Shown here: positions 24,740-54,122 of the stretch, one piece after another
Numbering within the stretch: the stretch's first letter is position 1
Layout: the number at the start of each line of letters is the position of its first letter
Program-made: the position numbers and the translations under genes
Notes under the pieces: model-generated
Database searches by the model: none
What the model was told of the DNA's origin: nothing
Seen by the model: the letters and a program-made list of their open reading frames with translations, nothing else
DNA from: Patescibacteria group bacterium
GTDB taxonomy: Bacteria; Patescibacteriota; Minisyncoccia; Phycocordibacterales; Phycocordibacteraceae
DNA: 64,000 bases
Direction of reading: 5' to 3'
Assembly (NCBI GenBank): GCA_018826905.1
Contig: JAHJYC010000005.1
Coordinates: forward strand, 46,681 to 110,680

Positions 24740-24815
24740 GCCGGGATAGCTCAGTTGGTAGAGCAACGGTTTTGTAAACCGTAGGTCGCGAGTTCAAGCC
24801 TCGCTCCCGGCTCCA
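24740..24815 (+). tRNA. tRNA-Thr (anticodon UGU), with an encoded CCA end.
   Basis: Manual cloverleaf: acceptor GCCGGGA/TCCCGGC, D-arm GCTC-AGTTGGTA-GAGC, anticodon stem ACGGT/ACCGT with loop TTTGTAA, T-arm GCGAG-TTCAAGC-CTCGC, 3' TCCA. Confidence 0.85.
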
Positions 24816-26872: not shown

Positions 26873-27604
26873 ATGCCTCCAGGTCGCCTGCACCCGCTAT
26901 CAGTCGCCATTCGCGATATTGCCTCAATCTTCGGACGGATGGGCTTTTCCGTTGCCTATGGGCCTGAGCTTGAAGACGAGCACTACAACTTCAATGTATT
27001 AAACATTCCTGCTGATCACCCCGCTCGGGACATGCAGGATACTTTTTGGACGAAGGAAAGCCCGCGACGTGTTCCTCGTACACAAACAAGTCCTGTCCAG
27101 GTGCGGTACATGGAGGAGAAGATTGCACAAAATATTCTTCCACCGTATCGCATCATTGTGCCCGGCAAGGTGTTCCGCAACGAAGCGACTGACGCAACAC
27201 ATGAAGCACAGTTCTATCAGAATGAAGGACTAGTTGTAGGAAAGGGAATTACTCTCGCACACTTAAAAGGAACACTTGAACAGTTCTTTAAGGAATATTT
27301 GTCTGAGGGAGCGCGAGTTCGTTTCCGTCCAAGTTTTTTTCCTTTTACTGAGCCCTCAGTTGAAGTAGATGTATGGTTTGAGGCACAAGGGAAACCGGGA
27401 CGATGGCTTGAAGTTATGGGAGCGGGTATGGTGCACCCTTCTGTACTCAGGAATGCAGGAATAGACCCAACTGAGTACCAAGGGTTTGCTTTCGGGGGAG
27501 GAGTGGAGCGTTTGATTATGGTTAAGTACGGAGTAGATGATATTCGCGGATTCCATGGTGGCGATATTCGCTTTGTCTATGGGTTTGATGAGACAAAAGT
27601 ATAG
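26873..27604 (+). CDS. pheS: Phenylalanine--tRNA ligase alpha subunit (short form lacking the N-terminal helical domain).
   Basis: 'FPFTEPSVEVDVWF...GAGMVHP...FAFGGGVERL' class-II aaRS motifs 2 and 3. 243 aa. Confidence 0.85.
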   Translation: MPPGRLHPLSVAIRDIASIFGRMGFSVAYGPELEDEHYNFNVLNIPADHPARDMQDTFWTKESPRRVPRTQTSPVQVRYMEEKIAQNILPPYRIIVPGKVFRNEATDATHEAQFYQNEGLVVGKGITLAHLKGTLEQFFKEYLSEGARVRFRPSFFPFTEPSVEVDVWFEAQGKPGRWLEVMGAGMVHPSVLRNAGIDPTEYQGFAFGGGVERLIMVKYGVDDIRGFHGGDIRFVYGFDETKV

Positions 27605-27606
27605 TT

Positions 27607-29508
27607 ATGAAAGTTTCCCGCACATGGCTACAACAGTATTTTAATAAAGAACTCCCAAGTACAGAGGTGCTTGCTGAAGCGCTTACCTTTCACACCGCTG
27701 AGATTGAAGAGGCTACAGAGGACATGCTGGATGTGAATGTACTTCCCGATAGAGCAGCGTATTTGCTTTCTCATAGAGGTATTGCAACAGAGATTTCTGC
27801 AACGCTTTCTATTCCCTTAAAGCGCGACCCTTTGCGTGAGGAGCTTCCACAGTACGAATCAACCCCGAAACTCTCTGTCTCTCTTGATGCTGAGGGTACG
27901 TGCGACAGATACGTTGGGGCACTTATAACTGGAGTACGAGTAGGACCCTCTCCGGAGTGGCTTCGTGCGGCACTTGAATCAGTAGGGCAACGGTCAATAA
28001 ACAATATTGTTGATGCGACGAACTACGTCATGTTTAACATCGGACAACCGTTGCATGCATTTGACGCTGACAAACTAACTGCCCGAGAGGGCGTCTATGC
28101 AATTGGAGTACGGGCAGCAGAGGCACGTGAATGCATTACTGTACTCAGTGGCGAAACCTATGATGTACCTGAAGGAGCACTCCTTATTGCTGACATGAAT
28201 GCAGAAGGAACGGCACTTGGTATTGCTGGGATTAAAGGAGGAAAACACGCGAGCGTCTCTGAAGAAACAACGAACATTATTCTTGAGTCCGCTCATTTTG
28301 ACGGAACTGCAGTTCGTAAAACTGCGCAAGCGCTTAAACTTTTTACCGATGCGTCTAGCCGTTTCCAAAACAAGCCGTCTGTAGTACTTGCTGCATACGG
28401 TATGCGCGATGTTATTGCGCTGATTCAGGACATTGCAGGCGGTACGCTAGAAGGAGTGACTGATGTGCATAGTCCGTTACTTCCTCCGGATCCTCTTTCC
28501 GTTACGCTTGATCACATCAATGGAGTGCTTGGGACTTCCTATAGCACACAAGATGTGGCGGACGCCTTTAGTCGCCTCTCTTTTTCATACACACTTGCCG
28601 AGCAGACATTTACTATCCTGCGGCCCTTTGAGCGGAAAGACCTCACTATCGCAGAGGATCTTATTGAAGAAGCTGGACGCATACTTGGATACGATCGTAT
28701 TGAACCAGTTGCTCTCCCGCTTCAGATACTACCCCCAGAGCAGTCTAGATTTAGAGGAATTGAGGCAATTAAGGATTTCCTCACCGAGCGTGGCTTCACT
28801 GAGATATCAACCCCCGCATTCTCTGCTGAAGGAGATATTGAGCTAGAGAACCCACTTCAAGAGGACCGTCCTTTCATGAGAACAAGTTTGCTGCCATCAC
28901 TTGAGAGCGCGCTACAACGTGCGGTACATGTTGCGCCGAGAGTACTTGGCCACTCACGGTACATAAAACTCTTTGAAGTTGGTTCGGTTTTCTCTAAAGA
29001 AGGAGAGTCACTTTTGCTATCAATGGGCGTTGTTGATACAGCAGGGAAGTTAGGAGCTGACGCGCTTAAAGAGAATGTTGCCACCCTGGAACAGGAACTG
29101 CTTCGTATCCCAGCATCTGCTCGTTTCTCTCTTAATGGAACAATGATGGAGTTGAATCTTGAAAAGCTGAATCTAGAGAAGCTTGGTGAGACGTATGCAC
29201 CAATCTCTGTTCGTCTTTCATCGTACCGTCCCTATTCAGCCTATCCATTCGCACTCCGCGATGTTGCGGTCTGGACTCCAGGAGGCACTGCTGAAACCGA
29301 AGTTGCAGAGTGTATTCAGGCGAATGCTGGGGAGCTTTTGGTGCGCACCGATCTCTTTGATCGTTTTGAAAAAGAGGGTCGCATATCGTATGCATTTAGA
29401 CTTGTCTTTGAGTCACCGGAACGAACACTTTCTGATGCTGATCTAGATCCGGCGATGAGCCAAGTAACAGAGGCGCTCAACAAGAAAGAGGGGTGGGAGG
29501 TCCGTTAA
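27607..29508 (+). CDS. pheT: Phenylalanine--tRNA ligase beta subunit.
   Basis: 'MKVSRTWLQQYF' start typical of PheT. B3/B4 and B5 region similarity. It lies immediately downstream of pheS. Confidence 0.85.
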   Translation: MKVSRTWLQQYFNKELPSTEVLAEALTFHTAEIEEATEDMLDVNVLPDRAAYLLSHRGIATEISATLSIPLKRDPLREELPQYESTPKLSVSLDAEGTCDRYVGALITGVRVGPSPEWLRAALESVGQRSINNIVDATNYVMFNIGQPLHAFDADKLTAREGVYAIGVRAAEARECITVLSGETYDVPEGALLIADMNAEGTALGIAGIKGGKHASVSEETTNIILESAHFDGTAVRKTAQALKLFTDASSRFQNKPSVVLAAYGMRDVIALIQDIAGGTLEGVTDVHSPLLPPDPLSVTLDHINGVLGTSYSTQDVADAFSRLSFSYTLAEQTFTILRPFERKDLTIAEDLIEEAGRILGYDRIEPVALPLQILPPEQSRFRGIEAIKDFLTERGFTEISTPAFSAEGDIELENPLQEDRPFMRTSLLPSLESALQRAVHVAPRVLGHSRYIKLFEVGSVFSKEGESLLLSMGVVDTAGKLGADALKENVATLEQELLRIPASARFSLNGTMMELNLEKLNLEKLGETYAPISVRLSSYRPYSAYPFALRDVAVWTPGGTAETEVAECIQANAGELLVRTDLFDRFEKEGRISYAFRLVFESPERTLSDADLDPAMSQVTEALNKKEGWEVR

Positions 29509-29598
29509 AACCCTTATTTCATGGGCTCCTAGACGTACCTGTGGAGAAGGATCGGGTTCGTTTGAAGGCCTGTTTCGTGGTAGTATAGAGGTAACAAC

Positions 29599-31662
29599 AT
29601 GGCCAAAGCAGCAGACAATACCGGAAAGAAAAGCGCCGCCAAAAGCGGCGAGTACGATGCATCTTCCATTACCGTCCTTGAAGGACTTGATCCGGTACGA
29701 AAGCGTCCTGGTATGTATATCGGGACCACAGGTCCCGATGGACTACATCACCTTATCTGGGAGATCTTTGATAACTCTCGCGACGAGGCTATGGGTGGGT
29801 TTGCAGATAATATTGAGGTTGCATTGCTACCGGGAGGATATGTGCGTGTCGTAGATAACGGCCGCGGTATTCCTGTTGGTATTCACCCAAAGACAAAGGT
29901 GTCTGCACTAGAGACCATCATGACTACCCTCCATGCCGGAGGAAAGTTCGGAGGTGACGAATCAGGATATAAGGTTTCTGGAGGTCTTCACGGAGTGGGA
30001 GCTTCTGTAGTGAACGCACTTTCTGAACATACGAAAGTTATCGTCCATAAGGATGGGGCAGTTCATATGCAGGAGTACAAGATTGGAAAAGCGCTCGGCA
30101 AGGTAAAGCAGATTGGAAAGACCAGTCATAACGGAACGATCGTATTCTTCAAGCCTGATGTAACCATCTTTAAAGATGGCATCAATTGGAACTGGGACAA
30201 GATTGTAAGTCACTTGCGTCAGCAGGCGTATCTCGTAAAAGGAACACGTATTACTGTTATTGATGCGAGAGAGGAGACGGCCGTTGATGCTGAAGGAACG
30301 GTATACCTTCGTGCAGAAGGACTAGACAGTCCATCAATGTCTTTCTTCTTTGAGGGAGGGCTCCGGTCGCTCATTGGTTTTTATAACAAGCACCAGACGG
30401 TTGCACACAAAAATATCTTTTACGTTGACTCAAGCGAGGGAGACGTGGCGGTTGAGGTGGCACTTCAATATGTAGATGATATTTCTCCGAGACTGCTTGC
30501 GTTTGCGAACAATATTTACAATCCAGAGCACGGTACGCATGTCACAGGATTTAAGACAGCGCTTACTCGTACTATTAATACGTACGCACGTACTGCAGGG
30601 ATCCTAAAAGAAAGCGACGAGAATTTCACCGGAGATGATGTGCTTGAGGGTATAACTGCAGTTATCTCAGTGAAGATGCCTGAGATTCAGTTTGAAGGAC
30701 AGACGAAAGGGAAGCTTGGATCTGTGGAGGCGCAAGGGGCAACTGCAACTATCTTCGGATCGGCATTCGCTTCGTTCTTAGAAGAGAACCCAGACGATGC
30801 CCGCGCTATCGCAAATAAGGTATTGCTTGCACTTAAAGCAAGAAAAGCAGCTAAGGCAGCTAAAGACTCTGTTCTTAGAAAGGGCGCCCTTGAGGGAATG
30901 ACACTGCCTGGAAAACTTGCAGACTGCCAGACAAAGAATGCAGAGGAATCAGAGCTCTTTATCGTAGAGGGAGACTCTGCGGGAGGTACAGCAAAGACAG
31001 GACGAGATCGTCGTACTCAGGCTATTCTCCCGCTTCGTGGAAAGATTCTTAACATTGAGCGCGCACGTCTGGATAAAATGCTTGCTTCTGAGCAGATCAA
31101 GAATCTAGTGGTTGCACTCGGTACTGCTATTGGAGATATCTTTGATATTTCAAAACTCCGCTATCACAAGGTTATTATCGCAACAGACGCGGACGTAGAC
31201 GGGGCACACATTCGTACTCTGTTGCTCACTCTTTTCTATAGGCACTTCAGACAAGTTATAGATGGCGGATTTATTTATATTGCTCAGCCACCGTTGTACA
31301 AAATTAAGCGCGGAAAGGAGGTGCTGTATGCCTATACAGAAGAAGAGAAGGTGCGTCTATTAGGAAACGACGCTATAGCTGATTCTGATGAAGAAGAGGA
31401 GACTCCAGAAGAAGGAGAAGAGGTAGTTGCAAAGAAGGGAGCACCAAAGACCTCCATTCAAAGATATAAGGGACTTGGAGAGATGAACGCCTCAGAGCTC
31501 TGGGAAACAACCATGGATCCAGGGAAGCGAGTGTTGAAGCGCGTTACCGTTGAGGACGCACAAGATGCAGATCGTATCTTTGATATTCTCATGGGGACAG
31601 ATGTCGCAAGCAGGAAAGCATTCATTCAATCAAACGCCAAAATGGCAACGTTGGACGTATAA
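29599..31662 (+). CDS. gyrB: DNA gyrase subunit B.
   Basis: GHKL ATPase 'LEGLDPVRKRPGMYIGTT...LHHLIWEIFDNSRDE'. Toprim 'LFIVEGDSAGG'. C-terminal 'QRYKGLGEMN'. Confidence 0.85.
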   Translation: MAKAADNTGKKSAAKSGEYDASSITVLEGLDPVRKRPGMYIGTTGPDGLHHLIWEIFDNSRDEAMGGFADNIEVALLPGGYVRVVDNGRGIPVGIHPKTKVSALETIMTTLHAGGKFGGDESGYKVSGGLHGVGASVVNALSEHTKVIVHKDGAVHMQEYKIGKALGKVKQIGKTSHNGTIVFFKPDVTIFKDGINWNWDKIVSHLRQQAYLVKGTRITVIDAREETAVDAEGTVYLRAEGLDSPSMSFFFEGGLRSLIGFYNKHQTVAHKNIFYVDSSEGDVAVEVALQYVDDISPRLLAFANNIYNPEHGTHVTGFKTALTRTINTYARTAGILKESDENFTGDDVLEGITAVISVKMPEIQFEGQTKGKLGSVEAQGATATIFGSAFASFLEENPDDARAIANKVLLALKARKAAKAAKDSVLRKGALEGMTLPGKLADCQTKNAEESELFIVEGDSAGGTAKTGRDRRTQAILPLRGKILNIERARLDKMLASEQIKNLVVALGTAIGDIFDISKLRYHKVIIATDADVDGAHIRTLLLTLFYRHFRQVIDGGFIYIAQPPLYKIKRGKEVLYAYTEEEKVRLLGNDAIADSDEEEETPEEGEEVVAKKGAPKTSIQRYKGLGEMNASELWETTMDPGKRVLKRVTVEDAQDADRIFDILMGTDVASRKAFIQSNAKMATLDV

Positions 31663-31664
31663 AC

Positions 31665-31698
31665 AAAAAGCCCCGGGAATTCCCGGGGCTTTTTGTTT
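31665..31698. terminator. Bidirectional terminator (perfect palindrome) between gyrB and the convergent gene.
   Basis: 'aaaaagccccgggaattcccggggctttttgttt'. Confidence 0.8.
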
Positions 31699-31705
31699 AT
31701 AACGG

Positions 31706-32485
31706 TTAGTCCTCAATATCAATGCGTACTGAACGAGAGTTGTTTCCTTCGTTAGACTCGCTTATGTCGCGGTCTGGGTCTACGACGATAGTAATCTCAC
31801 GATCGTCTCCTTCGCGTGTTTGGTCAAATCCAAGGACGTAATCAATGCGCTCTCCAGGCTTGAGTGACTCTTGCTTGCCTGAGTGGAAGGTATAGCTACG
31901 GCTCGTTGGGAGCTCTGCATCAAATTCAAAGCGTCCTGAGATGTTTGTACCACGGTTAGCGATGGTGAACTTCACCGCACCACGCTCTCCATCTGGAACA
32001 CGGCTTGAAGCACGGAACGTGTCAGTGTCTGAAGACGTAAGGTATCCAGTAGTGATGTTTTCAATCACAAGGTCAGGGAGACCAAAGAGGGGAGCTGGAG
32101 TTGTTCCAACCTGTACGACACGCGTGACGGGAGTTCCTGGTGTTGGTGTTACCGGTGTAGTGTCTGGTGTCTCTGTTGCAGGAGGAGTTGTTGTTGCTGC
32201 AGGGATATCGTCTCCAAAGGGAACAGTCTCTGTGGGTGGAACCACAACGAGATCTGTGTCCTCAGTGTTTGGCTGGAATGCAGATGAGAAGTACACCGCA
32301 GCTGAACCGATGCGAGAAATAGCAGACGGCACAAAAGTTGCTGCATAAATGGCAAGCGCCATTCCAATAAGAATAAGGACGATAAATCCAACGATTGCAA
32401 GACCGTTTACCGCTGCACGGCGAACAGGCCTCTCCGAAGTTCGTAGTGTGGTCAGTTCCATATGCGCATTGTTTACCACACCCAT
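31706..32485 (-). CDS. N-terminally anchored secreted protein with a Thr/Pro-rich linker and a CARDB-like domain.
   Basis: TM helix. 'TTPPATETPDTTPVTPTPGTPVT'. CARDB end motif 'DPDRDISESNEGNNS'. Confidence 0.65.
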   Translation of the reverse strand: MGVVNNAHMELTTLRTSERPVRRAAVNGLAIVGFIVLILIGMALAIYAATFVPSAISRIGSAAVYFSSAFQPNTEDTDLVVVPPTETVPFGDDIPAATTTPPATETPDTTPVTPTPGTPVTRVVQVGTTPAPLFGLPDLVIENITTGYLTSSDTDTFRASSRVPDGERGAVKFTIANRGTNISGRFEFDAELPTSRSYTFHSGKQESLKPGERIDYVLGFDQTREGDDREITIVVDPDRDISESNEGNNSRSVRIDIED

Positions 32486-32614
32486 TATTCTTTGTCAACC
32501 ACCCCCACAGAAAGCGCTTCAGCGAATGTTCAGGTACCTGTAGGTATACTGAAGACCAGAATACCAGCGGACTTGACAATATGGGTGTTGTGGTGTAAAT
32601 ATGAGTAGGAGCCT

Positions 32615-33277
32615 ATGGCACTTGTCACAAATACCGTACAGCTGATTCGCGCTTCAGGGCGCGTATATGCTAAGAAATGGAGCTTTCTTCTCGCTTTTCT
32701 AGCGGTGTTCTTCGTATCATTCTCGGTTCTCGCGATCCTAGACTTGGTACCAGAAGCACCTGCCACAATCGTTGAGGAAGCAGTGGTAGTGCCACAGGAC
32801 GCATTGGTTGCTTCTGTGGTGTCAGCAGTACCTGAGAATCCTGTTCGTGTGGAGATTCCAGATATTGATCTTGATGTAACAATCAAGAACCCTGAGAGCA
32901 CAGATGTTGAGACCTTGGACGCTGCACTCCTTACAGGTGCAGTGCGTTATCCAACGTCAGCACAGCTTGGAGAAGAAGGGAACGTAATTCTCTTCGGACA
33001 CTCAAGCTACCTGCCGGTGGTAAACAACAAGGCGTTCAAGGCATTTAATGCAATTCAGAACCTTTCAGAGGGAAACCGCATTCTCGTACATAGTGAGGGG
33101 ATGACGTATGTCTACTCTGTAACGGACGTAGCTTCTGCAGACGCTGAGTCTGCTGCTATTCCACTTACAAAGACCGGACACACGCTAACACTCGCTACAT
33201 GTGATTCGTTTGGAAAGAAGACGGATCGTTTTGTGGTGGTCGCTCAACTTGTTGAGAGCTATCCGCTCGGAAGCTAG
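32615..33277 (+). CDS. Sortase-family transpeptidase.
   Basis: N-terminal TM helix. His motif 'ILFGHSSY'. Catalytic 'TLTLATCD' (TLxTC). Downstream conserved Arg ('RFVVVAQL'). Confidence 0.7.
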   Translation: MALVTNTVQLIRASGRVYAKKWSFLLAFLAVFFVSFSVLAILDLVPEAPATIVEEAVVVPQDALVASVVSAVPENPVRVEIPDIDLDVTIKNPESTDVETLDAALLTGAVRYPTSAQLGEEGNVILFGHSSYLPVVNNKAFKAFNAIQNLSEGNRILVHSEGMTYVYSVTDVASADAESAAIPLTKTGHTLTLATCDSFGKKTDRFVVVAQLVESYPLGS

Positions 33278-33372
33278 ACTTCTTGGCTGATAGGTCGCTG
33301 CAAGTAGCAGGCAGGACCAACTGTTCTTCAACCGCCGCCAATCAGGCGGCTCACAAAAGGAAGGAACTCGCC

Positions 33373-34278
33373 ATGCGAGATCTTAACCGACGTGCGCTGC
33401 TCCTTGCGGGCGGCGCATCCTGCGCACTGGGCGTCACTCCAGGCTTCGCCGGGCAAGACCCGACGTGGGAAAACTGGGGTGGAGCACCCTACGGAACCAG
33501 TTTCAGTGACGTGACTTCGGACACCAAGTTCGACTTCGCGTTGCAAGAACTCGGCATTCCCGAACCGCTCCGCCAGCCCTTCAAGGATCTGGTGCGCGCA
33601 AACCCGACTCCCGAGCCGCTCGTGTACCTGGTTCCCAACCAGGTCCTGAACGGCATGATGAGCGGTACTGATTCGCGGCACCCGAGGCCGCACGTCATGC
33701 GCAACGTCACCGTCGGCCGGACTGTCATCTCCCGGGGTGTCGTCCGAGCAGCGGAAGCTTGGGAATGGCGTCTCTCTCACGAGGGTCGCCTGTACCGGCT
33801 GATTCTTCCCAAGGTCTGCTTCAACTGGTCTCTGATCATCGAAGAAGAACCCGGAGAAGAACGCTGCGTCGAGCTGCACTTTAACGCCTTCGTTGGCGGC
33901 AATGTGCGCTGGGGCGTGGGCAGTTTGGACGGCGCGCTTGCGCCGAGCAGCTGCAACGCCATCCGGCAAGGCGACGGGTCTTGGAAGGCTTGGGGCGGGG
34001 AATGTGACGAATGCGTGCCGGCGGTTGGCTACATCAGTCAAACGCTGCGCGGAACGGCACAGGTCCCGCATCGGTACCTCTACGACGTCACGGAGCGTCA
34101 TCAAACGATCCGGTTTTCAACCGAGATCTGGGAGAAGACGGTCTACATCTGTCTGGAGGACGCGAACGGCAGAAGGTCCTGCGGGGTGTACATGCGCCCC
34201 GAAGACTGGAACGGTCGCTATTCCGCCGACATCCCTGATTCCATGTGGATCTTGGACGAAGGAAACTGTCCCGCATAG
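33373..34278 (+). CDS. Hypothetical secreted Cys-containing protein with a twin-arginine (Tat)-type signal peptide. It sits inside a GC-rich (~62-65%) compositional island.
   Basis: Strong SD 'aaggaaggaa' upstream of ATG 33373. 'MRDLNRRALLLAGGASCALG'. GC3-rich codons (ctg/ggc/ttc/gac) unlike the neighbouring genes. A terminator-like nested hairpin lies at 34287-34330. Confidence 0.6.
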   Translation: MRDLNRRALLLAGGASCALGVTPGFAGQDPTWENWGGAPYGTSFSDVTSDTKFDFALQELGIPEPLRQPFKDLVRANPTPEPLVYLVPNQVLNGMMSGTDSRHPRPHVMRNVTVGRTVISRGVVRAAEAWEWRLSHEGRLYRLILPKVCFNWSLIIEEEPGEERCVELHFNAFVGGNVRWGVGSLDGALAPSSCNAIRQGDGSWKAWGGECDECVPAVGYISQTLRGTAQVPHRYLYDVTERHQTIRFSTEIWEKTVYICLEDANGRRSCGVYMRPEDWNGRYSADIPDSMWILDEGNCPA

Positions 34279-34390
34279 GGACACCCGGGTTGGCTGGCAG
34301 CTCTCTACGAGCTTCCGCCAACCCTTTTCATACGCCACTTGGTGGCAAGGAGAAATTATTTATTGAATCGTTAGATTATCAAAGAACACA

Positions 34391-36526
34391 TTGATTATGG
34401 AACTCATGAAAGAACACATTGCATACGCGAAGACGCGCCCGATTATGGTTGCGATATTTGCTGTGCTCGCAACCATATCCATTGGTATGGCTGTTGCGTA
34501 CGCAACAGGATTCACTGTACCTGAGCCAACACAGGCACAGGTTATTGGACCTCCTTGTTGTACTCCGCCACCACCACCACCCCCTCCTCCGCCACCACCA
34601 CCACCACCACCCCCGCCACCGCCACCGCCACCGCCACCACCATTGCCGGTGCCGCAGTGTGAGCTTTCTGCAGCCCCAACTCAGGTATCTGTTGGAGGAA
34701 CCTCAATACTTACGTGGAGTACGGTTAATGCAACAAGTGCATCTATAGATCAGGGAGTTGGTCCAGTAAGTCCTGTAGAGGGCGGATCAGTGCCAGTAAC
34801 GGTTACAGGCAATACAACCTATACACTTACCGCAACTGGTCCTGGAGGAACCGTAACCTGTACTGCAGCTGTAACGGTGCCACCGCCACCAGATGAACTA
34901 CCAGTGTGTACGCTTGTTGCAAATCCAACGGCTATTCAGATTGGAGGATCTTCAGTACTTACGTGGACTACACAGAACTCAGTATCATTTGTTATTGACC
35001 GTGGAGTAGGGTCAGTAACTCCAGTTGCTGGAGGAGATGTGTCAGTGTCACCATTAGTGACTACTACCTATACCGGTACTGCAACAGGAACGAACGGGCA
35101 GACAGTTACCTGTGCTGCGACGATTACAGTAAGTATTCTCCCGCCAGCGCCTGTTTGTACTCTCGTCGCAAATCCAACGACCATAAACCCAGGTGGCTCC
35201 TCAACACTCACCTGGACTACTCAGAATGTAACGAGCGCCACTATTGATCAGGGAATCGGAGCCATCACTCCAGTTACTGGGGGATCAGTACCCGTATCTC
35301 CTTCAGTCACTACGACGTACACGCTTACGGGAACTGGAACAAACGGACAGACTGTTACGTGTCCTGCAACGGTTACCGTAACCACCAATCCTGTACCGAT
35401 CTGTACTCTTGTTGCTAATCCAACCACAATTGATCGTGGAGATGAGTCAACGCTTACATGGACAAGCTCCAATGTAACCTCGGGATCCATTAATCAGGGT
35501 GTAGGAACTATTACTCCAGTAGCTGGTGGAGACACACGCGTCTCTCCAACAAGTGACACGACCTATACCGCAACCTTCACGGGTCCATATGGAGATGTCA
35601 CCTGTACTGCAGCGGTTGATATCCGCAGCACCACTGGAGGAGGGGGAGGAGGCGGAGGACGTCGTAGTCCTCGCGTTGTCCTAGACTCACTTAAGCAACC
35701 TCTAGAAGAGCCACTCTCGTTCGTGTATCTCTCTGAGACTCCATATACTGGTCTTGATCTAGGACCATGGGGAACTGCGATCTACTGGCTCATGCTTATC
35801 GGATGGAGTGCTGCTGCTGCGTACCTTGTACTCTTCAACGCACTACCGTTTGTAACCGCTAGAGCACGAAGCTTTGGAGGGAATGTGAAGCAGGCACTAA
35901 ATGTTGAGCCAATTGAGATGAGTGCACATGCTGCACCAGCGCATGACACACACACTGCTCATCCGTCTGCTCCAACGCCAAGTCGTCCAGAAGGATTCAA
36001 TCAACGTGATGGATTCCGTTCATTCGCAGCGAACGAAGGCCTCACCATTGATGACATTGTAAAGGGACTCTCACGTCAGATTGAGGAGCGTCAGGACACA
36101 CGTCCAGAGGCAACTCCAGCATACACAGAACGTACTGCTGAACCTGTCGCACACGCAGCCCCTGTTCGTGAGGTGCCTAAGGCAACACATGAGCCAGTGT
36201 CTGAAGACGTTCGTGACTTCCTCGCAGCCCTTCTTGCAGGAGATCGTGATACGGTCTTCGGTATGATCCGCAACCTCGCTCGTGAGGGTGAGGACACGGA
36301 GCTCTTCGTCTCACATGCAGCATGTGCTCTTGATGACGCATACCGCGCATGTATTGATGGCACTACCTGTCACCCAGATATTGCTGAGCTCACGAGTGGA
36401 TGCCACCCATCATTCCTTGAGCGCATTGTTACCTCACTCACGACTGCTGTTGATGGAAGCTATTCAACCGGTATCACCGGTGTGAAGATGGCTCTCACAC
36501 GTGCACTCGGCGTAGTGGCTGGATAA
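34391..36526 (+). CDS. Large surface protein. Its parts in order: N-terminal signal-anchor, a ~29-residue poly-Pro tract, four tandem ~83-aa Ig-like Cys-pair repeats, a poly-Gly tract, a second TM helix, and a ~230-aa C-terminal domain with a Cys/His cluster.
   Basis: TM 'IMVAIFAVLATISIGMAVAYA'. (CCN)n at 34565-34645. Repeats 'TLTW.T.N.TSA.IDQG.G..TPV.GG...VSP...TTYT.T.TG..G.TVTC.A.VTV' x4. 'GGGGGGGGRRSPR'. TM 'AIYWLMLIGWSAAAAYLVLF'. The first ATG is at 34397. Confidence 0.75.
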   Translation: MIMELMKEHIAYAKTRPIMVAIFAVLATISIGMAVAYATGFTVPEPTQAQVIGPPCCTPPPPPPPPPPPPPPPPPPPPPPPPPPLPVPQCELSAAPTQVSVGGTSILTWSTVNATSASIDQGVGPVSPVEGGSVPVTVTGNTTYTLTATGPGGTVTCTAAVTVPPPPDELPVCTLVANPTAIQIGGSSVLTWTTQNSVSFVIDRGVGSVTPVAGGDVSVSPLVTTTYTGTATGTNGQTVTCAATITVSILPPAPVCTLVANPTTINPGGSSTLTWTTQNVTSATIDQGIGAITPVTGGSVPVSPSVTTTYTLTGTGTNGQTVTCPATVTVTTNPVPICTLVANPTTIDRGDESTLTWTSSNVTSGSINQGVGTITPVAGGDTRVSPTSDTTYTATFTGPYGDVTCTAAVDIRSTTGGGGGGGGRRSPRVVLDSLKQPLEEPLSFVYLSETPYTGLDLGPWGTAIYWLMLIGWSAAAAYLVLFNALPFVTARARSFGGNVKQALNVEPIEMSAHAAPAHDTHTAHPSAPTPSRPEGFNQRDGFRSFAANEGLTIDDIVKGLSRQIEERQDTRPEATPAYTERTAEPVAHAAPVREVPKATHEPVSEDVRDFLAALLAGDRDTVFGMIRNLAREGEDTELFVSHAACALDDAYRACIDGTTCHPDIAELTSGCHPSFLERIVTSLTTAVDGSYSTGITGVKMALTRALGVVAG
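34565..34645 (+). repeat. Coding (CCN)n microsatellite (poly-proline).
   Basis: 'ccgccaccaccaccacccc...ccgccaccgccaccgccacc' seen directly. Confidence 0.85.
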
Positions 36527-36542
36527 GAGCTAGACACAATTC

Positions 36543-36582
36543 AAAACACCCAGGGCATTGTCCTTGGGTGTTTTGTGTTTCT
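36543..36582. terminator. Bidirectional rho-independent terminator between convergent genes.
   Basis: 'aaaacacccagggcattgtccttgggtgttttgtgttt'. Confidence 0.7.
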
Positions 36583-36593
36583 TGACCGATTCT

Positions 36594-38357
36594 CTACGCT
36601 CTCGTACGAATCTCCTCAAGCACCCTTTCAACAAACTCAGATACAGCAATAGCTCCTTCAGGTCCCCGGTCTCTGCTTTCAACTGAAAGTGTGTTGCTCT
36701 CAATTTCCTTGTCTCCAACAACGAGAAGGTACGGAACCTTTTCTTGCTTTGCGCTTCGTATGCGCTTTCCGAGAGACTCGTTTGCATCATCAATCTCTAC
36801 ACGAATACCGGTACTCTGCATTTTCTGGAAGACGGTAGTCGCATATTCTTTCTGTTTTTCCGAAACGGGCAGTATGCGTGCCTGTATAGGACTTAACCAT
36901 GTGGGGAAGGCACCAGCGTAGTGTTCTATAAGAATTCCAAGGAAACGGTCAGGGGAGCCAACAAGTGCACGATGGATCATAACTGGTGTTTTCTTCGTGC
37001 CATCTTCGGCAGTGTACTCAAGACCAAACCGTGTTGGCTGCACGAAATCAAGCTGAATAGTAGATATCTGCCACTCTCGTCCAAGCGCATCAACGGCCAT
37101 AATATCTATCTTTGGCCCATAAAACGCTGCTTCACCAAGCGCCTCTTTAAACTCAATATTTTGAGTCGTAAGTAAATCGCGCATAACATCCTCAGCACGA
37201 TCCCATGTTGCATCCTCTCCTAAGTACTTCTCTTTGTTCTCAGGGTCACGTAATGAAAGACGCATCCAATACGAAATGCGATAAGTACCAAGTGCTTCCT
37301 GTATTGCAGCAAGTACGTTACTTACTTCCTTTTCAATCTGATCCTCTCTACAAAAGATATGCCCATCATCTTGACTAAATGCACGTAGACGAGTGAGGCC
37401 CGAGAGTTCTCCGGGACGCTCATCTCTATAGAGGACAGCAAAGTCTGAATATCTAATCGGAAGGTCTCTGTATGAGCGGGGCTTAGATGCAAAAATCTGC
37501 GTGTGTTGCGGACAATTCATCGGCTTCAAGAACATTTCGTCGGCAACGTACTGAGAGCGTACAGACAGCATGTCCTCCTTGTACTGATCGTAGTGTCCAG
37601 AGGTCTTGAATAATTCGGCCTTGTTTACGTTTGGAGTATGAACCTCTCCAAATCCAAGCTTGTTATTTAATTCTCGTGAGTAGCCAACTATTTCGTTGCG
37701 CACCGTAGCTCCGCGAGGAGTAAACAGGGGCATCCCCGGACCAACCAGATCTGAAAAGGTGAATAAGTCTAGTTCCTTCCCAAGCTTTCGGTGATCTCGT
37801 TTCTTTGCTTCCTCCTGTTGCGCTTGGTAGGCAACAAGTGCTTCCTTTGTATCAAAAGCAAGTCCGTAAATGCGGGTGAGCATGGGATTCTTCTCGTCTC
37901 CGCGCCAATAAGCGCCCGCAATACGCTCAAGCACGAATGTCCCAATCTTTATGTCATGCGCAGGACTTTCTGCGTGTCCTCCGCGACACAGATCCGTAAA
38001 GCCTCCTGCTGTATAGAGCGTAATAGGATCTTTCGCTGAAACGATGCCTTCAATAAGCTCAAGTTTGAAAGGATTCTCTGCAAAACGTGCGCGGGCATCT
38101 TCAGGAGATATCTCATTGCCGGTCATAGAGCCCCAGGAAGGAAGCATCTCTTCCATAGATGCCTGGAGTATCTCAAGGTCTGCCTCCTTTGGTGCAGGAC
38201 CTTCAGAGAAGTCAAAGTCGTAGTAAAACCCGTTATCAATAGCTGGACCGATAGTGGGGCGTGCGTGTGGGTATCGCTCAAGCACAGCAGCGGCAAGCAC
38301 ATGAGCCAGGGTGTGGCGCTTTTCTTCTAGGGAAGCCATATGGTAGGAGAATAGCAT
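36594..38357 (-). CDS. thrS: Threonine--tRNA ligase (lacks the N-terminal TGS domain; retains the editing-domain HxxxH motif).
   Basis: 'RHTLAHVLAAAV...GPAIDNGFYYDF' second additional domain. Class II catalytic core. Anticodon-binding domain. 587 aa. Confidence 0.85.
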   Translation of the reverse strand: MLFSYHMASLEEKRHTLAHVLAAAVLERYPHARPTIGPAIDNGFYYDFDFSEGPAPKEADLEILQASMEEMLPSWGSMTGNEISPEDARARFAENPFKLELIEGIVSAKDPITLYTAGGFTDLCRGGHAESPAHDIKIGTFVLERIAGAYWRGDEKNPMLTRIYGLAFDTKEALVAYQAQQEEAKKRDHRKLGKELDLFTFSDLVGPGMPLFTPRGATVRNEIVGYSRELNNKLGFGEVHTPNVNKAELFKTSGHYDQYKEDMLSVRSQYVADEMFLKPMNCPQHTQIFASKPRSYRDLPIRYSDFAVLYRDERPGELSGLTRLRAFSQDDGHIFCREDQIEKEVSNVLAAIQEALGTYRISYWMRLSLRDPENKEKYLGEDATWDRAEDVMRDLLTTQNIEFKEALGEAAFYGPKIDIMAVDALGREWQISTIQLDFVQPTRFGLEYTAEDGTKKTPVMIHRALVGSPDRFLGILIEHYAGAFPTWLSPIQARILPVSEKQKEYATTVFQKMQSTGIRVEIDDANESLGKRIRSAKQEKVPYLLVVGDKEIESNTLSVESRDRGPEGAIAVSEFVERVLEEIRTRA

Positions 38358-38394
38358 GAAAATGACGACCGAAGAGGGTCGTCATATGTCCTGA

Positions 38395-38592
38395 TTATGT
38401 GTTCGCGAGCTTCTGGATGCGCCCAGAGAAATCGTCAAGCAGGACTTGCAGTTCTGCCGGAATTTCCGCGTCCGTGCCGTTGTTTTCAAGAGCTTCAAGC
38501 CCTATCACTACACAGGCGCAGGCCTGCACCGTCTTGGAGGGCAATCCCTCTCCAAGACTGAGCACATCTTTTAGCGTTACCGTAGTAGCCAT
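38395..38592 (-). CDS. Possible small hypothetical protein (65 aa) between thrS and dnaE.
   Basis: The ORF fills the gap on the same strand. It has no recognisable motif. Confidence 0.25.
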   Translation of the reverse strand: MATTVTLKDVLSLGEGLPSKTVQACACVVIGLEALENNGTDAEIPAELQVLLDDFSGRIQKLANT

Positions 38593-52859: not shown

Positions 52860-53210
52860 ATGTCCTTATTTGACGAAGTCTACGACACGCTCTCTGGGAG
52901 ATCCTGGAGCAGTGTCTCAGAAATTCAGGAAGCGGTGCGAACGCAGCGCTACCTGAAACGGATCCACAGGCCGGTCTCGCTTTTCCGGAGAATACTTCCG
53001 GCCTTTGCGGATATGTTTGAGACACCCACTGAGGCTTCTGTGCAGTTTGTCTTGCAGCACTTCAGTCGCAAGACGTGGGTCTCGTGTCGCGAACGCGTCT
53101 CTGGGAACCCGGAGTACTCGCTTACCCTCAGGGGGCAAATGAAGACAGGCCCAGTGCAGATACGCAGGGACGATCTGGGAAGACCAGAAGGGCCGAGCGG
53201 CTACACATAA
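52860..53210 (+). CDS. Hypothetical protein encoded in GC-rich island 2.
   Basis: SD 'aaagggggg' 5 nt before ATG 52860. GC-rich codon usage. No recognisable motif. Confidence 0.45.
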   Translation: MSLFDEVYDTLSGRSWSSVSEIQEAVRTQRYLKRIHRPVSLFRRILPAFADMFETPTEASVQFVLQHFSRKTWVSCRERVSGNPEYSLTLRGQMKTGPVQIRRDDLGRPEGPSGYT

Positions 53211-53312
53211 AGGACGGAATCTCTCCGTCCTTTTTCATTGCACAACAGAGACGCTAGATTGACAATATCCCTATATTTGTTATAGTTTAAGGGAACCTGG
53301 CGCTGTGCCAGG

Positions 53313-53882
53313 ATGTCAAAACTGTTCCTGGGGGATCTAAGAATGCGACTACATGCACTGTTTCTGGGAGCGTGCGGCATCTTCGCCGCGCTTCTCATCG
53401 GCAAGGACGATCTGAGCGGAATCATTCTGACGGGCGTCGCCACTGTGGCGCTCTTCCTATGCTTCTTCCTTCAGAGCGACACGGCCAGCAGCTGGACCGA
53501 TATGGGCAAAGGGCCGACGCCCTACGCCTTCTCGTTCCTGACCATGAGCGTGGCGTCCATATCCATAGACGGAAGTCTGTGGGCGGGGATGTTCACCTTC
53601 GCGCTCTCACTCGGCCTGATGTTGGCAACTGCGGTCGCCATCTACGCTCAGGGTGCGTGCACCTGCGAGCGCATCAATTGGCGCGACGTGGGCCGGATCT
53701 ATCGCACACTCGGCCTGCCGATCATCGGCATGGTCCTGGTGCACTATCTGGTCGCTACCGACCGCAGCGTGGCCTCGGGGTGCATCGTTATCGCCGGCCT
53801 CACTTGGCTCGCGATGAAGACCGCCCCGCAGGAGCCGTTTGTTCGGCTGCCCGCATACTGGGCTCAACGCACCGCATCTTGA
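53313..53882 (+). CDS. Hypothetical polytopic membrane protein (~5 TM helices) in GC-rich island 2.
   Basis: Hydrophobic segments 'LHALFLGACGIFAALLIG', 'IILTGVATVALFLCFFL', 'MFTFALSLGLMLATAVAIY', 'LPIIGMVLVHYLV', 'CIVIAGLTWLAM'. GC ~62%. Confidence 0.5.
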   Translation: MSKLFLGDLRMRLHALFLGACGIFAALLIGKDDLSGIILTGVATVALFLCFFLQSDTASSWTDMGKGPTPYAFSFLTMSVASISIDGSLWAGMFTFALSLGLMLATAVAIYAQGACTCERINWRDVGRIYRTLGLPIIGMVLVHYLVATDRSVASGCIVIAGLTWLAMKTAPQEPFVRLPAYWAQRTAS

Positions 53883-53904
53883 TTGCATCCCAGCAATCCC
53901 GCAA

Positions 53905-53931
53905 GCGGCTCTCTTCGGAGGGTCGCTTTTT
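53905..53931 (+). terminator. Terminator-like GC hairpin with a UUCG tetraloop and a T5 tract, closing the GC-rich island.
   Basis: 'gcggctctc ttcg gagggtcgc ttttt' (9-bp stem including two G-U pairs). Confidence 0.55.
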
Positions 53932-54122
53932 CCTTTTCCACAGCCGCCTTGACCACCCCCTCATCTTCACGGTATATTAAGGAAACGAGATTGAGTAACG
54001 GGGGATAGAGGGCAAGAGAAAAACAAGTGCGATTTTAAAAACAGCGTCTCCATAACGAGGGACGCGGCTCATGCATACATGAGCCCGTTTGGCGTTTGGA
54101 GCTACGATAATACAGACCTGAC

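Follow-up and report, generated by a model that had tools for sequence, protein, structure and literature searches.

Flexible genomic islands of the replacement type exchange surface and antigen genes (O-antigen, capsule, pilin and the variable regions of flagellin) by way of conserved flanks, and they are usually AT-richer than the host. Here we describe a gene, called X, in a 64-kb stretch of Patescibacteria DNA (64,000 nucleotides, referred to as the window). X shows the marks of such an island: a fixed locus shared with its relatives, conserved flanks around a divergent or unalignable centre, an atypical composition, an inter-species identity far above that of the flanks with a low dS relative to them, and a tree that disagrees with the flank trees. 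It differs from the known islands in that it is a single gene of 0.9 kb, of which as little as one half may be exchanged, in that the cassette is GC-richer than the host, and in that it resides in a reduced Patescibacteria genome and encodes a protein family without known relatives.

The sortase-dependent pilins and MSCRAMM-type adhesins (PitA, PitB, Spy0128/T-antigen, SpaA and FimP) offer another comparison. Like them, X is predicted to be secreted and to have beta-sandwich modules, and it lies next to a sortase gene, but it lacks a C-terminal LPXTG-type signal, transmembrane (TM) segment or charged tail and ends in ...WILDEGNCPA; at this locus, a PxTG motif with a TM segment and a basic tail is found only in the downstream 711-aa protein. 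A third comparison is with PamA and PamB, the Pam pilins, which are confined to CPR bacteria and had escaped sequence annotation. These secreted, beta-rich proteins have two domains and paired cysteines; they are reported mainly from Saccharimonadia and Microgenomatia, in an operon with the chaperone-like PamC and PamD beside ATP-synthase genes (bioRxiv 10.64898/2026.03.03.709456). Compared by description only, X shares with them the CPR restriction, export, two beta-rich domains and cysteines, whereas it is found in Paceibacterota beside a sortase gene, and its locus has no PamC/PamD/ATP-synthase neighbourhood.

The preliminary description of this DNA had reported a GC-rich island with abrupt borders in lower-GC surroundings, and the GC and GC3 profiles showed that the island is real. 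In 200-nt windows, GC was 0.575-0.66 across 33300-34299, as against 0.43-0.53 in the upstream 31000-33299 and 0.44 in the spacer at 34300-34499; overall, 33300-34280 is 58-66% GC, compared with about 49%. The left border is sharp, with the sortase stop at 33277 and the GC up by 33300. When the 64 kb were profiled in 1-kb bins, GC stayed within 0.445-0.52 except at 33-34 kb (0.584), at 34-35 kb (0.532, a bin that includes the 3' end of the island and a CCN run) and at 53-54 kb (0.576). The ORF of X has a GC of 0.615 (GC1/2/3 of 0.62/0.49/0.73), and the GC3 of the neighbouring genes is 0.37-0.45. Among 52 crude ORF calls in the window, the mean GC3 was 0.435 (sd 0.068), which places X about 4 sd out, and the only other GC3 outliers lay at 52860-53980. 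The codon usage of X was atypical as well: its RSCU correlation with its own flanks was -0.14, and with the flanks of GC-rich relatives it reached 0.62. High expression or codon selection was rejected as the cause of the high GC3, because the rpoB, rpoC, rpsB, tsf and ribosomal protein genes of the window have a GC3 of 0.45-0.47.

The island had also been said to hold a gene that looks like a complete transcription unit, and its layout agrees with this. X (33373..34278, + strand) starts with an ATG at 33373, ends with a TAG at 34276-34278 and encodes a 301-aa protein with the N-terminus MRDLNRRALLLAGGASCALG, a putatively exported, Cys-rich member of a Patescibacteria-specific family without a name. 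The left junction and the 5' leader occupy 33278..33372 (+), as judged from the sequence, blastn and a four-way identity profile, and a Shine-Dalgarno-like AAGGAAGGA is found at 33357-33365, 8 nt upstream of the ATG. On the 3' side, a terminator-like hairpin at 34287-34324 is followed by UUUUC (34287..34329, +). The 75-nt hairpin stretch has a folding energy of -36 kcal/mol (z -4.6), and none of 200 shuffled sequences folded as well; the hairpin was absent from the output of a consensus terminator scan. A small second hairpin lies at 34334-34346. The dN/dS of X against its ortholog in UBA6241 was 0.024/0.157, confirming that the + frame is coding. An antisense ORF at 33328-34104 was rejected as a gene: it is the codon-aligned antisense frame of the GC3-rich X, a by-product of GC3, because its stops would require TTA, CTA or TCA codons on the sense strand. 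An Rfam scan of 32-36 kb gave zero matches, so the island is no RNA gene, and a repeat search over 32.5-35 kb found neither flanking repeats nor a DGR template/variable pair.

X is surrounded by housekeeping and surface genes. Its conserved left neighbour is a sortase gene (32615..33277, +; PF04203 at 3.6e-22), and beyond it lies the gene for a CARDB-domain membrane-anchored protein (31706..32485, - strand; PF07705 at 2.4e-08), assigned to the same surface-protein neighbourhood by synteny. The conserved right neighbour, downstream of X in relatives too, encodes the 711-aa surface protein (34391..36526, +). This protein combines four Ig-like repeats with a TM segment at the N-terminus and a poly-Pro linker, and its internal SETPYTG precedes a further TM segment and RARS. 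The order gyrB-CARDB-sortase-X-surface protein-thrS was common to more than 20 independent related contigs from NCBI, ENA, JGI and Logan, and the fuller neighbourhood reads pheT-gyrB-CARDB-sortase-X-surface protein-thrS. The sortase gene was upstream of X in almost all related loci, X stood at the same locus in all relatives sampled, and the order was kept even where X was only 35-47% identical. Neighbour-joining trees of the sortase and of the C-terminal module of X (C-module) were congruent at depth: the sortase tree gave 99% support to the subclade formed by the window and the related loci L013, L009, L001, L007, L002 and L022, and the C-module tree gave 100% to the complement of that subclade. 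Synteny and congruence mark X as a resident of this locus.

The protein had been described as Cys-bearing and without a recognisable family, and we likewise found no Pfam, NCBIfam or PDB relative in searches with X, with 88 family members and with relatives that have the N-module or the C-module only. The family itself comprises 198 representative matches. Most of the carriers that bear a taxon name are Patescibacteria, Paceibacterota, Kaiserbacteria, Parcubacteria or Minisyncoccota, and the rest are MAGs labelled as unclassified 'bacterium'. Three short contigs with other taxon labels have this sortase-X locus too, and their labels are probably due to mis-binning; besides these three, no non-Patescibacteria homologue was present among the 198 representative matches. 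Related loci were searched with an 8-sequence alignment, and motifs were counted in the family alignment (n=88); a metagenome scan using the single X protein gave no relatives. The AF2 model of X (pLDDT 92) consists of a disordered N-terminal signal, a helical part and beta modules, and a PDB profile search, a Foldseek search and a BFVD fold search gave nothing. The conserved C-module (aa ~160-301; 33850..34275, +), delimited by alignments and by its nucleotide identity of 86.8-90.5% to L009 and L006, contains the cysteines that are invariant in the family alignments (C165, C194, C211, C214 and C260), the motif CDEC and a C-terminal GNCP. Proteins with the C-module alone are present among the family matches, and two types of N-module can be distinguished in the family alignment. 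The two beta-rich modules of X are probably disulfide-stabilised.

Comparison with UBA6241 (locus L013) bears on the exchange of X between species. X was 94.8% identical in nucleotides between the window and L013 (third-position identity 0.89, dS 0.157), versus 72-85% for the flanks, where dS was 0.69 for the sortase, 0.82 for CARDB, 1.48 for gyrB, 2.3 for pheT and 3.4 for thrS. Third-position identity dropped symmetrically on both sides of X, to 0.66 in the sortase, 0.61 in CARDB, 0.54 in gyrB and 0.45 in pheT on the one side and to 0.60 in the surface protein and 0.48 in thrS on the other. The tract of 94-99% identity, with its ends near 33283 and 34230, is coextensive with the GC island, and about 550 bp within it (33330-33880) are 97-100% identical. 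L009 and L021 have flanks 77-98% identical to the window, and yet 33330-33824 is essentially unalignable in them (34-55%, with 72% in the last bin only). L013 is closest to L009 (87-100%) in the sortase, in the C-module stretches at 33882-34001 and in the terminator. All pairs are 90-98% identical over 33212-33329, and blastn homology of the flanks to L002-L006 and L009, which carry another allele, stops at about 33328-33330 and resumes at about 34436. Both types of N-module are found among genomes with flank identities of 68-100% per 60-nt window. Within the clade, the trees conflict: L013 joins L009 in the sortase tree (100%) and joins the window in the C-module tree (75%).

Taken together, these sequence patterns indicate that at least part of X is swapped between related species by recombination. 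According to the identity profile, the swappable cassette extends from the 5' leader through the signal peptide to the N-module (aa 1 to ~169; 33330..33880, +). The sortase 3' end and the intergenic region would serve as the left anchor for homologous recombination, and the C-module is probably the right-hand anchor. This is a clean, well-delimited case of inter-species recombination in Patescibacteria that acts on one surface-protein gene, or even half of it, with breakpoints at a domain boundary.

The composition of X was then compared with that of its hosts. Across 24 de-duplicated lineages, the GC3 of X was 0.675±0.095 versus 0.555±0.124 for the host, and X hardly tracked the host (r 0.31, slope 0.24), whereas the sortase control in the same lineages did so closely (r 0.94, slope 0.84). 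X was at or above the host GC3 in 19 of the 24 lineages; it was nearly host-like in L034 and L028, and it was below the host in the GC-richest one. The host-like values of L034 and L028 imply that nothing intrinsic to the gene forces its GC3 to 0.7. In low-GC hosts, GC-to-AT changes at third positions of X exceeded AT-to-GC changes in all five comparisons (14:5, 13:6, 25:8, 28:7 and 29:9), a signal of GC loss that may be inflated because parsimony polarisation, as reportedly noted by Eyre-Walker in 1998, over-counts common-to-rare changes in skewed sequences. The equilibrium GC3 implied by these changes is 0.47-0.59 for X, which now stands at 0.72-0.79, and 0.36-0.41 for the flanks. With its GC3 uncoupled from that of the host in two dozen lineages, X offers a natural experiment, if a small one, for weighing amelioration against biased conversion.

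Because the GC3 of X hardly tracks the host and X loses GC in low-GC hosts, its GC richness is most likely the legacy of a GC-richer allele pool. We think it probable that X is a long-standing gene of the Paceibacterota clade and a one-gene replacement island, with alleles from a GC-richer pool that are now decaying. X would be a lineage-specific gene of this (Kaiserbacteria-like) clade with a fixed slot in a cell-surface cluster made up of the CARDB protein, the sortase, X and the large Ig-repeat surface protein. With the conserved sortase 3' end plus the intergenic region as left anchor and the C-module or the downstream gene as right anchor, whole alleles, or the leader-signal-N-module cassette alone, would move between related species. 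The window lineage has a low-GC genome and would have its X from a GC-richer pool (GC ~0.6, GC3 ~0.7), and an allele that has yet to equilibrate and is decaying toward the host would produce an abrupt GC island. The preliminary description had proposed horizontal acquisition from a high-GC donor, of which the horizontal movement stands, as it best explains the composition, and the actinobacterial or otherwise foreign donor is not supported, since most named carriers are Patescibacteria. Some results count against this explanation by a GC-richer pool: a GC-rich donor with a near-identical allele was not found, the window allele is not nested inside the sampled GC-rich subclade in the C-module tree, and the divergence of X from L001, given below, looks vertical. 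Import from that subclade (L014-L017 and others), at which codon usage had hinted, is not supported by the C-module tree and was rejected. The nearest alleles outside the window clade belong to the mid-GC hosts L001 and L007 (host GC3 0.56-0.57) and lie 0.2 above their hosts.

Alternatively, X might be inherited vertically and be kept GC-rich by a force specific to the locus, either GC-biased gene conversion (gBGC) at a hot spot or selection on GC-ending codons or mRNA structure; the AT-biased drift of the host would then leave the GC3 of X behind. This explanation, which we consider unlikely, draws on the demonstrated recombination hot spot at X, on the excess of its GC3 over a host that it hardly tracks, and on the agreement of the C-module and sortase trees at depth. 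Moreover, X is as divergent from L001 (73% aa identity) as the sortase and CARDB are (73-74%), and yet both X alleles have a GC3 of 0.73-0.77; this equal divergence looks vertical, which would require a GC3 that lasted while dS became saturated. However, the recent substitutions in X are mostly GC-to-AT and imply the lower equilibrium given above, and in the sortase and CARDB, where dS is lowered too, GC3 is not raised (0.45 and 0.41). The change in GC occurs within about 50 bp and is not graded as variable conversion tracts would make it, and the near-host GC3 of X in L034 and L028 and its below-host value in the GC-richest host also count against such a force. The gBGC effects reported for bacteria are also far smaller than the +0.3 GC3 of X.

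A recent acquisition from a foreign high-GC organism (an actinobacterial host or its phage), with co-option at the symbiont surface, would agree with the atypical composition and the abrupt borders, and the signal of the window allele is Tat-like (below threshold), as is common in high-GC bacteria. We nevertheless regard it as very improbable. No actinobacterial or viral label was found in the 198 representative matches, 15 genome loci, 9 metagenome loci and viral contigs, which answers the proposal that the nearest homologues might be actinobacterial; every relative sampled has X at the same locus; at depth, the phylogeny of X agrees with that of the sortase; and no integrase, nearby tRNA or flanking repeats mark its borders, the sole tRNA of the window being at 24740-24815. 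Neither the viral contigs nor the BFVD fold search gave a match, and hence no phage vector is indicated. The idea of a co-opted host-derived gene likewise conflicts with carriers that are mostly Patescibacteria, with the residency of X at its locus and with the congruence of its C-module tree with that of the sortase. A chimera from assembly or binning, with a high-GC fragment joined into a CPR contig, had also been suggested; it has the abrupt compositional step in its favour and nothing else, and its probability is negligible. It is excluded because two other MAG assemblies (L037 and L038) are 100% identical in nucleotides to the window over 4.2 and 6.9 kb, both junctions included, and because four data sources together supply the more than 20 contigs with orthologous arrangements; the identical X protein is found on five contigs, of which these two were read. 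The arrangement is also that of UBA6241, which was sequenced in another study and has an X that is 95% identical, and the reading frames and the flanking homology are intact. An apparent anomaly is removed: the island is no evidence for contamination, host-to-symbiont capture or an orphan Tat substrate in bacteria that are assumed to lack Tat.

The export route of X deserves separate consideration, as the preliminary description had called its signal a textbook twin-arginine one. The putative signal peptide MRDLNRRALLLAGGASCALGVTPGFA|GQ (33373..33450, +), has an inferred cleavage site, and residues 1-25 are disordered in the AF2 model. It resembles the Tat signals modelled by PF10518 and TIGR01409 in that hydrophobic residues come after an RR, the h-region is rich in Gly and mildly hydrophobic, and an AxA-like site stands at the end (GFA|G). 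It differs from them in scoring below the model thresholds, with 13.8 bits (E 0.059) against Pfam TAT_signal (PF10518), whose cutoff is 22.7, and no match to TIGR01409, and in that the RR is not kept across the family: the RR-x-hydrophobic-hydrophobic motif is present in 4 of 88 members, and the other 84 have Lys-type Sec signals or N-terminal TM anchors. The Tat signal is therefore a weak one. We also rejected 'GASC' as a lipoprotein motif: it has Gly at position -3, and the family does not conserve the Cys.

Sec is the more likely export route for X. That X is a bona fide Tat substrate, its RR alleles being exported folded through a TatA/TatC encoded elsewhere and its other alleles through Sec, seems doubtful to us. 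The four RR alleles do have N/D-R-R-A-L-L followed by a low-hydrophobicity, Gly/Ser/Thr-rich h-region, which is Tat-typical, and PF10518 matches weakly. TatA and TatC have also been reported for some Paceibacteria (PMC9166423), so the earlier premise that CPR lack Tat is not general. On the other hand, the same conserved modules are carried by the 84 homologues with Sec-type signals or membrane anchors. As had been noted before, no tat gene is visible in the window; our search, a weak test with E. coli and B. subtilis queries, detected no tatA or tatC in its 64 kb, which are part of a contig of about 407 kb. Five invariant cysteines and no cofactor family are also features seen more typically in proteins that leave through Sec and are then oxidised outside the cell.

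Gene context, the export signal and a weak fold similarity suggest that X acts at the cell surface, where it most likely binds or recognises a partner cell or a substrate. A family of about 200 representative clusters that has a confident predicted structure without a detectable relative and is tied to a sortase/surface cluster may reasonably be proposed to mediate contacts of unculturable organisms with other cells or with substrates. A bolder reading, to which we give a rather small chance, is that X represents a structurally new, Patescibacteria-only, two-module surface family whose leader-signal-N-module is a specificity cassette for the recognition of a partner or host cell, traded by recombination between related episymbiont species, and that it has a GC regime of its own. 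If this is true, X would be a rare gene whose composition does not follow host GC3 even as the latter ranges from 0.32 to 0.80. GC-biased conversion at a hot spot and a hidden GC-rich reservoir lineage are examples of what such a regime might be.

We analyzed base composition around X, the 301-aa ORF that lies between the sortase gene and the gene of a 711-aa surface protein. Against a mean of ~49% for the window, GC in 200-nt windows was 0.575-0.66 across 33300-34299, 0.43-0.53 in the 2.3 kb upstream and 0.44 in the spacer before the next gene. X is the sole ORF of this island (+ strand; ATG 33373, TAG 34276-34278; N-terminus MRDLNRRALLLAGGASCALG), with AAGGAAGGA 8 nt 5' of its ATG and, at 34287-34324, a hairpin followed by UUUUC that was significantly stable (75-nt stretch, -36 kcal/mol, z -4.6). 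The preliminary description of the island, a GC step holding a single 301-aa ORF with this upstream element and a stable hairpin, was thus accurate. GC of X was 0.615 (GC1/2/3 = 0.62/0.49/0.73); its GC3 lay ~4 sd from the mean of 52 crude ORF calls in the window (0.435, sd 0.068), and adjoining genes had values of 0.37-0.45. Comparison with the UBA6241 ortholog gave a dN/dS of 0.024/0.157, indicating that the + frame is coding. A 258-aa antisense ORF was rejected as the codon-aligned antisense frame of X, a by-product of GC3 richness. Just 3' of the island, a CCN-codon run at 34565-34657 encodes ~30 prolines in a row and produces a GC spike of 0.62-0.73 with strongly negative GC skew; this bump has a separate cause and lies outside the island proper.

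A protein identical to X was found on five contigs from separate MAG assemblies. Two of them, GCA_018826595.1 and GCA_018820165.1, were compared with the window at the nucleotide level and were 100% identical over 6.9 and 4.2 kb, both junctions included, and the gene arrangement recurs in UBA6241, which was taken from another study; these data exclude the chimera that had been proposed. A foreign insert had also been proposed. Every related contig with enough flank has the order (pheT-)gyrB-CARDB(-)-sortase-X-large surface protein-thrS(-), CARDB being a CARDB-domain protein gene, and this order is kept even where X identity is only 35-47%. NJ trees of the X C-module (aa ~160-301) and of sortase were congruent at depth: in the sortase tree the window, UBA6241 (locus L013), L009, L001, L007, L002 and L022 formed a subclade with 99% support, and the C-module tree had the complementary clade at 100%. 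The conserved order and the deep agreement of the trees show that X is an old resident of the surface-protein cluster. It is not a foreign insert. The X locus had no nearby tRNA, integrase, flanking repeats or Rfam match, and X no viral homologue.

Between the window and UBA6241, flanking genes were 72-85% identical in nucleotides (dS: sortase 0.69, CARDB 0.82, gyrB 1.48, pheT 2.3, thrS 3.4), whereas X was 94.8% identical (dS 0.157). The tract of 94-99% identity, from ~33283 to 34230, coincides with the GC island. Third-position identity across 27600-38400 was 0.45 in pheT, 0.54 in gyrB, 0.61 in CARDB, 0.66 in sortase, 0.89 in X, 0.60 in the 711-aa protein gene and 0.48 in thrS, a fall-off symmetrical on either side of X, which suggests that recombination tracts were repeatedly centred on X, with the flanks hitch-hiking. 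A four-way identity profile revealed a mosaic. L013 was nearest L009, a relative with another X allele, in the sortase, in parts of the C-module and in the terminator (87-100%), and 33330-33880 (leader, signal and N-module) was 97-100% identical between L013 and the window; in L009 and L021, which also has another allele, 33330-33824 was essentially unalignable to the window (34-55%). The right breakpoint at ~33880 (aa ~169, at EERCVELHFNA) is the border between the two predicted modules. Within the clade the trees conflict, sortase joining L013 with L009 (100%) and X joining the window with L013. Matches to the X family included proteins with only the C-module (P0026, P0028, P0037, P0044) or only the N-module (P0057, P0060, P0069, P0074), so that the family is modular beyond the allele swap at this locus. 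Taken together, the dS contrast, the mosaic, the tree conflict and the separate modules indicate that the locus is a replacement island of one gene, where entire alleles or half-gene cassettes are swapped through conserved anchors. This is for the most part an ordinary explanation: related species exchange a surface-protein gene in place.

Why X is GC-rich was examined in 24 de-duplicated lineages with host flank GC3 of 0.32-0.80. X GC3 (0.675±0.095) barely tracked that of the host (r 0.31, slope 0.24), whereas the sortase control did (r 0.94, slope 0.84). It was at host level where host GC3 was 0.64-0.74, above it in low-GC hosts (for L022 and the window clade, by 0.29-0.37), below it in the GC-richest host, and nearly host-like in L034 and L028. 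Compared by codon usage, X and its own flanks had a correlation of -0.14, and X and the flanking genes of GC-rich relatives one of up to 0.62. In low-GC hosts, polarised third-position changes in X were mostly GC-to-AT in 5/5 comparisons, although parsimony over-counts common-to-rare changes; the implied equilibrium GC3 was 0.47-0.59 for X, vs 0.72-0.79 now, and 0.36-0.41 for the flanks, near their present 0.41-0.43. This GC-to-AT excess, an equilibrium below the present value and the nearly host-like X of two lineages weigh against maintenance of the GC-rich state by gBGC or codon selection. Together with the weak host tracking and the codon usage, the excess and the host-like alleles lead us to see the GC richness as most likely left over from a GC-richer pool of alleles, which would now be ameliorating. 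A GC-rich donor was not found among the sampled lineages, and in the C-module tree the window allele was not nested in the sampled GC-rich subclade.

X matched no Pfam or NCBIfam family, a meaningful Pfam domain was present in 0/88 family members, and a PDB search with the family profile found nothing. Word-indexed search returned only 8 relatives, among them the identical NCBI protein KJ819_00295 ('Patescibacteria group bacterium'); a profile search across 1.84 billion representatives yielded 198 matches at E<1e-3, 68 of them <1e-30. Named carriers were mostly Patescibacteria (Parcubacteria 21-54-25, Minisyncoccota, Ca. Kaiserbacteria, Ca. Paceibacterota, UBA6241), and the remainder included unclassified 'bacterium' MAGs, two 'Saccharibacteria' contigs and one 4.6-kb 'Deltaproteobacteria' contig with the same sortase-X locus. 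X belongs to an uncharacterised Patescibacteria-specific family. The short contigs labelled Deltaproteobacteria or Saccharibacteria, L027 (JAUYMQ010000359.1), L019 and L026 (binchicken 'Saccharibacteria'), have a Paceibacterota-type sortase-X(-surface protein-thrS) locus and are probably mis-binned or mislabelled. In other Patescibacteria proteins, separate X modules are joined to other unannotated regions.

The signal of X had been called a textbook Tat signal, a reading that is weak: PF10518 scored 13.8 bits (cutoff 22.7), TIGR01409 did not match, and just 4/88 family members have the RR motif; in the others the same modules are preceded by Sec signals of the Lys type or by N-terminal anchors. 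The h-region in all four RR alleles is Tat-like, with low hydrophobicity, so this allele type may be exported by Tat. The reported lack of tatA/tatC in the 64-kb window stood, as a weak test; there are reports of TatA and TatC from some Paceibacteria (PMC9166423), so the premise that these bacteria lack Tat is not general.

The 711-aa protein (34391-36526, +) has an internal sorting-signal-like element, ...FVYLSETPYTG (motif at 35741-35752), then a TM segment (LGPWGTAIYWLMLIGWSAAAAYLVLF), TARARS and ~200 more residues. No other PxTG-plus-TM element occurs in the window, and the protein could be a substrate of the neighbouring sortase. Its gene is 91-96% identical to UBA6241 at 35516-35815, vs 70-85% for most other parts. 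Tandem repeats of ~83 aa (249-nt spacing) with an Ig-like look run from 34692-34971 onward, and a Cys pair is conserved in every repeat (…CTLVANPT…TVTC…).

Besides X, GC3 outliers among the 52 crude ORF calls occurred only at 52860-53980, a second GC-rich patch (GC 0.56-0.655) between trmD and rpoB. It contains a 116-aa ORF (52860-53210, GC3 0.66) and a 189-aa membrane-like ORF (53313-53882); the latter matched no Pfam or NCBIfam family, and its single homologue among 5.8 billion proteins, with 92% identity, sits on an ENA contig of 1.2 kb.
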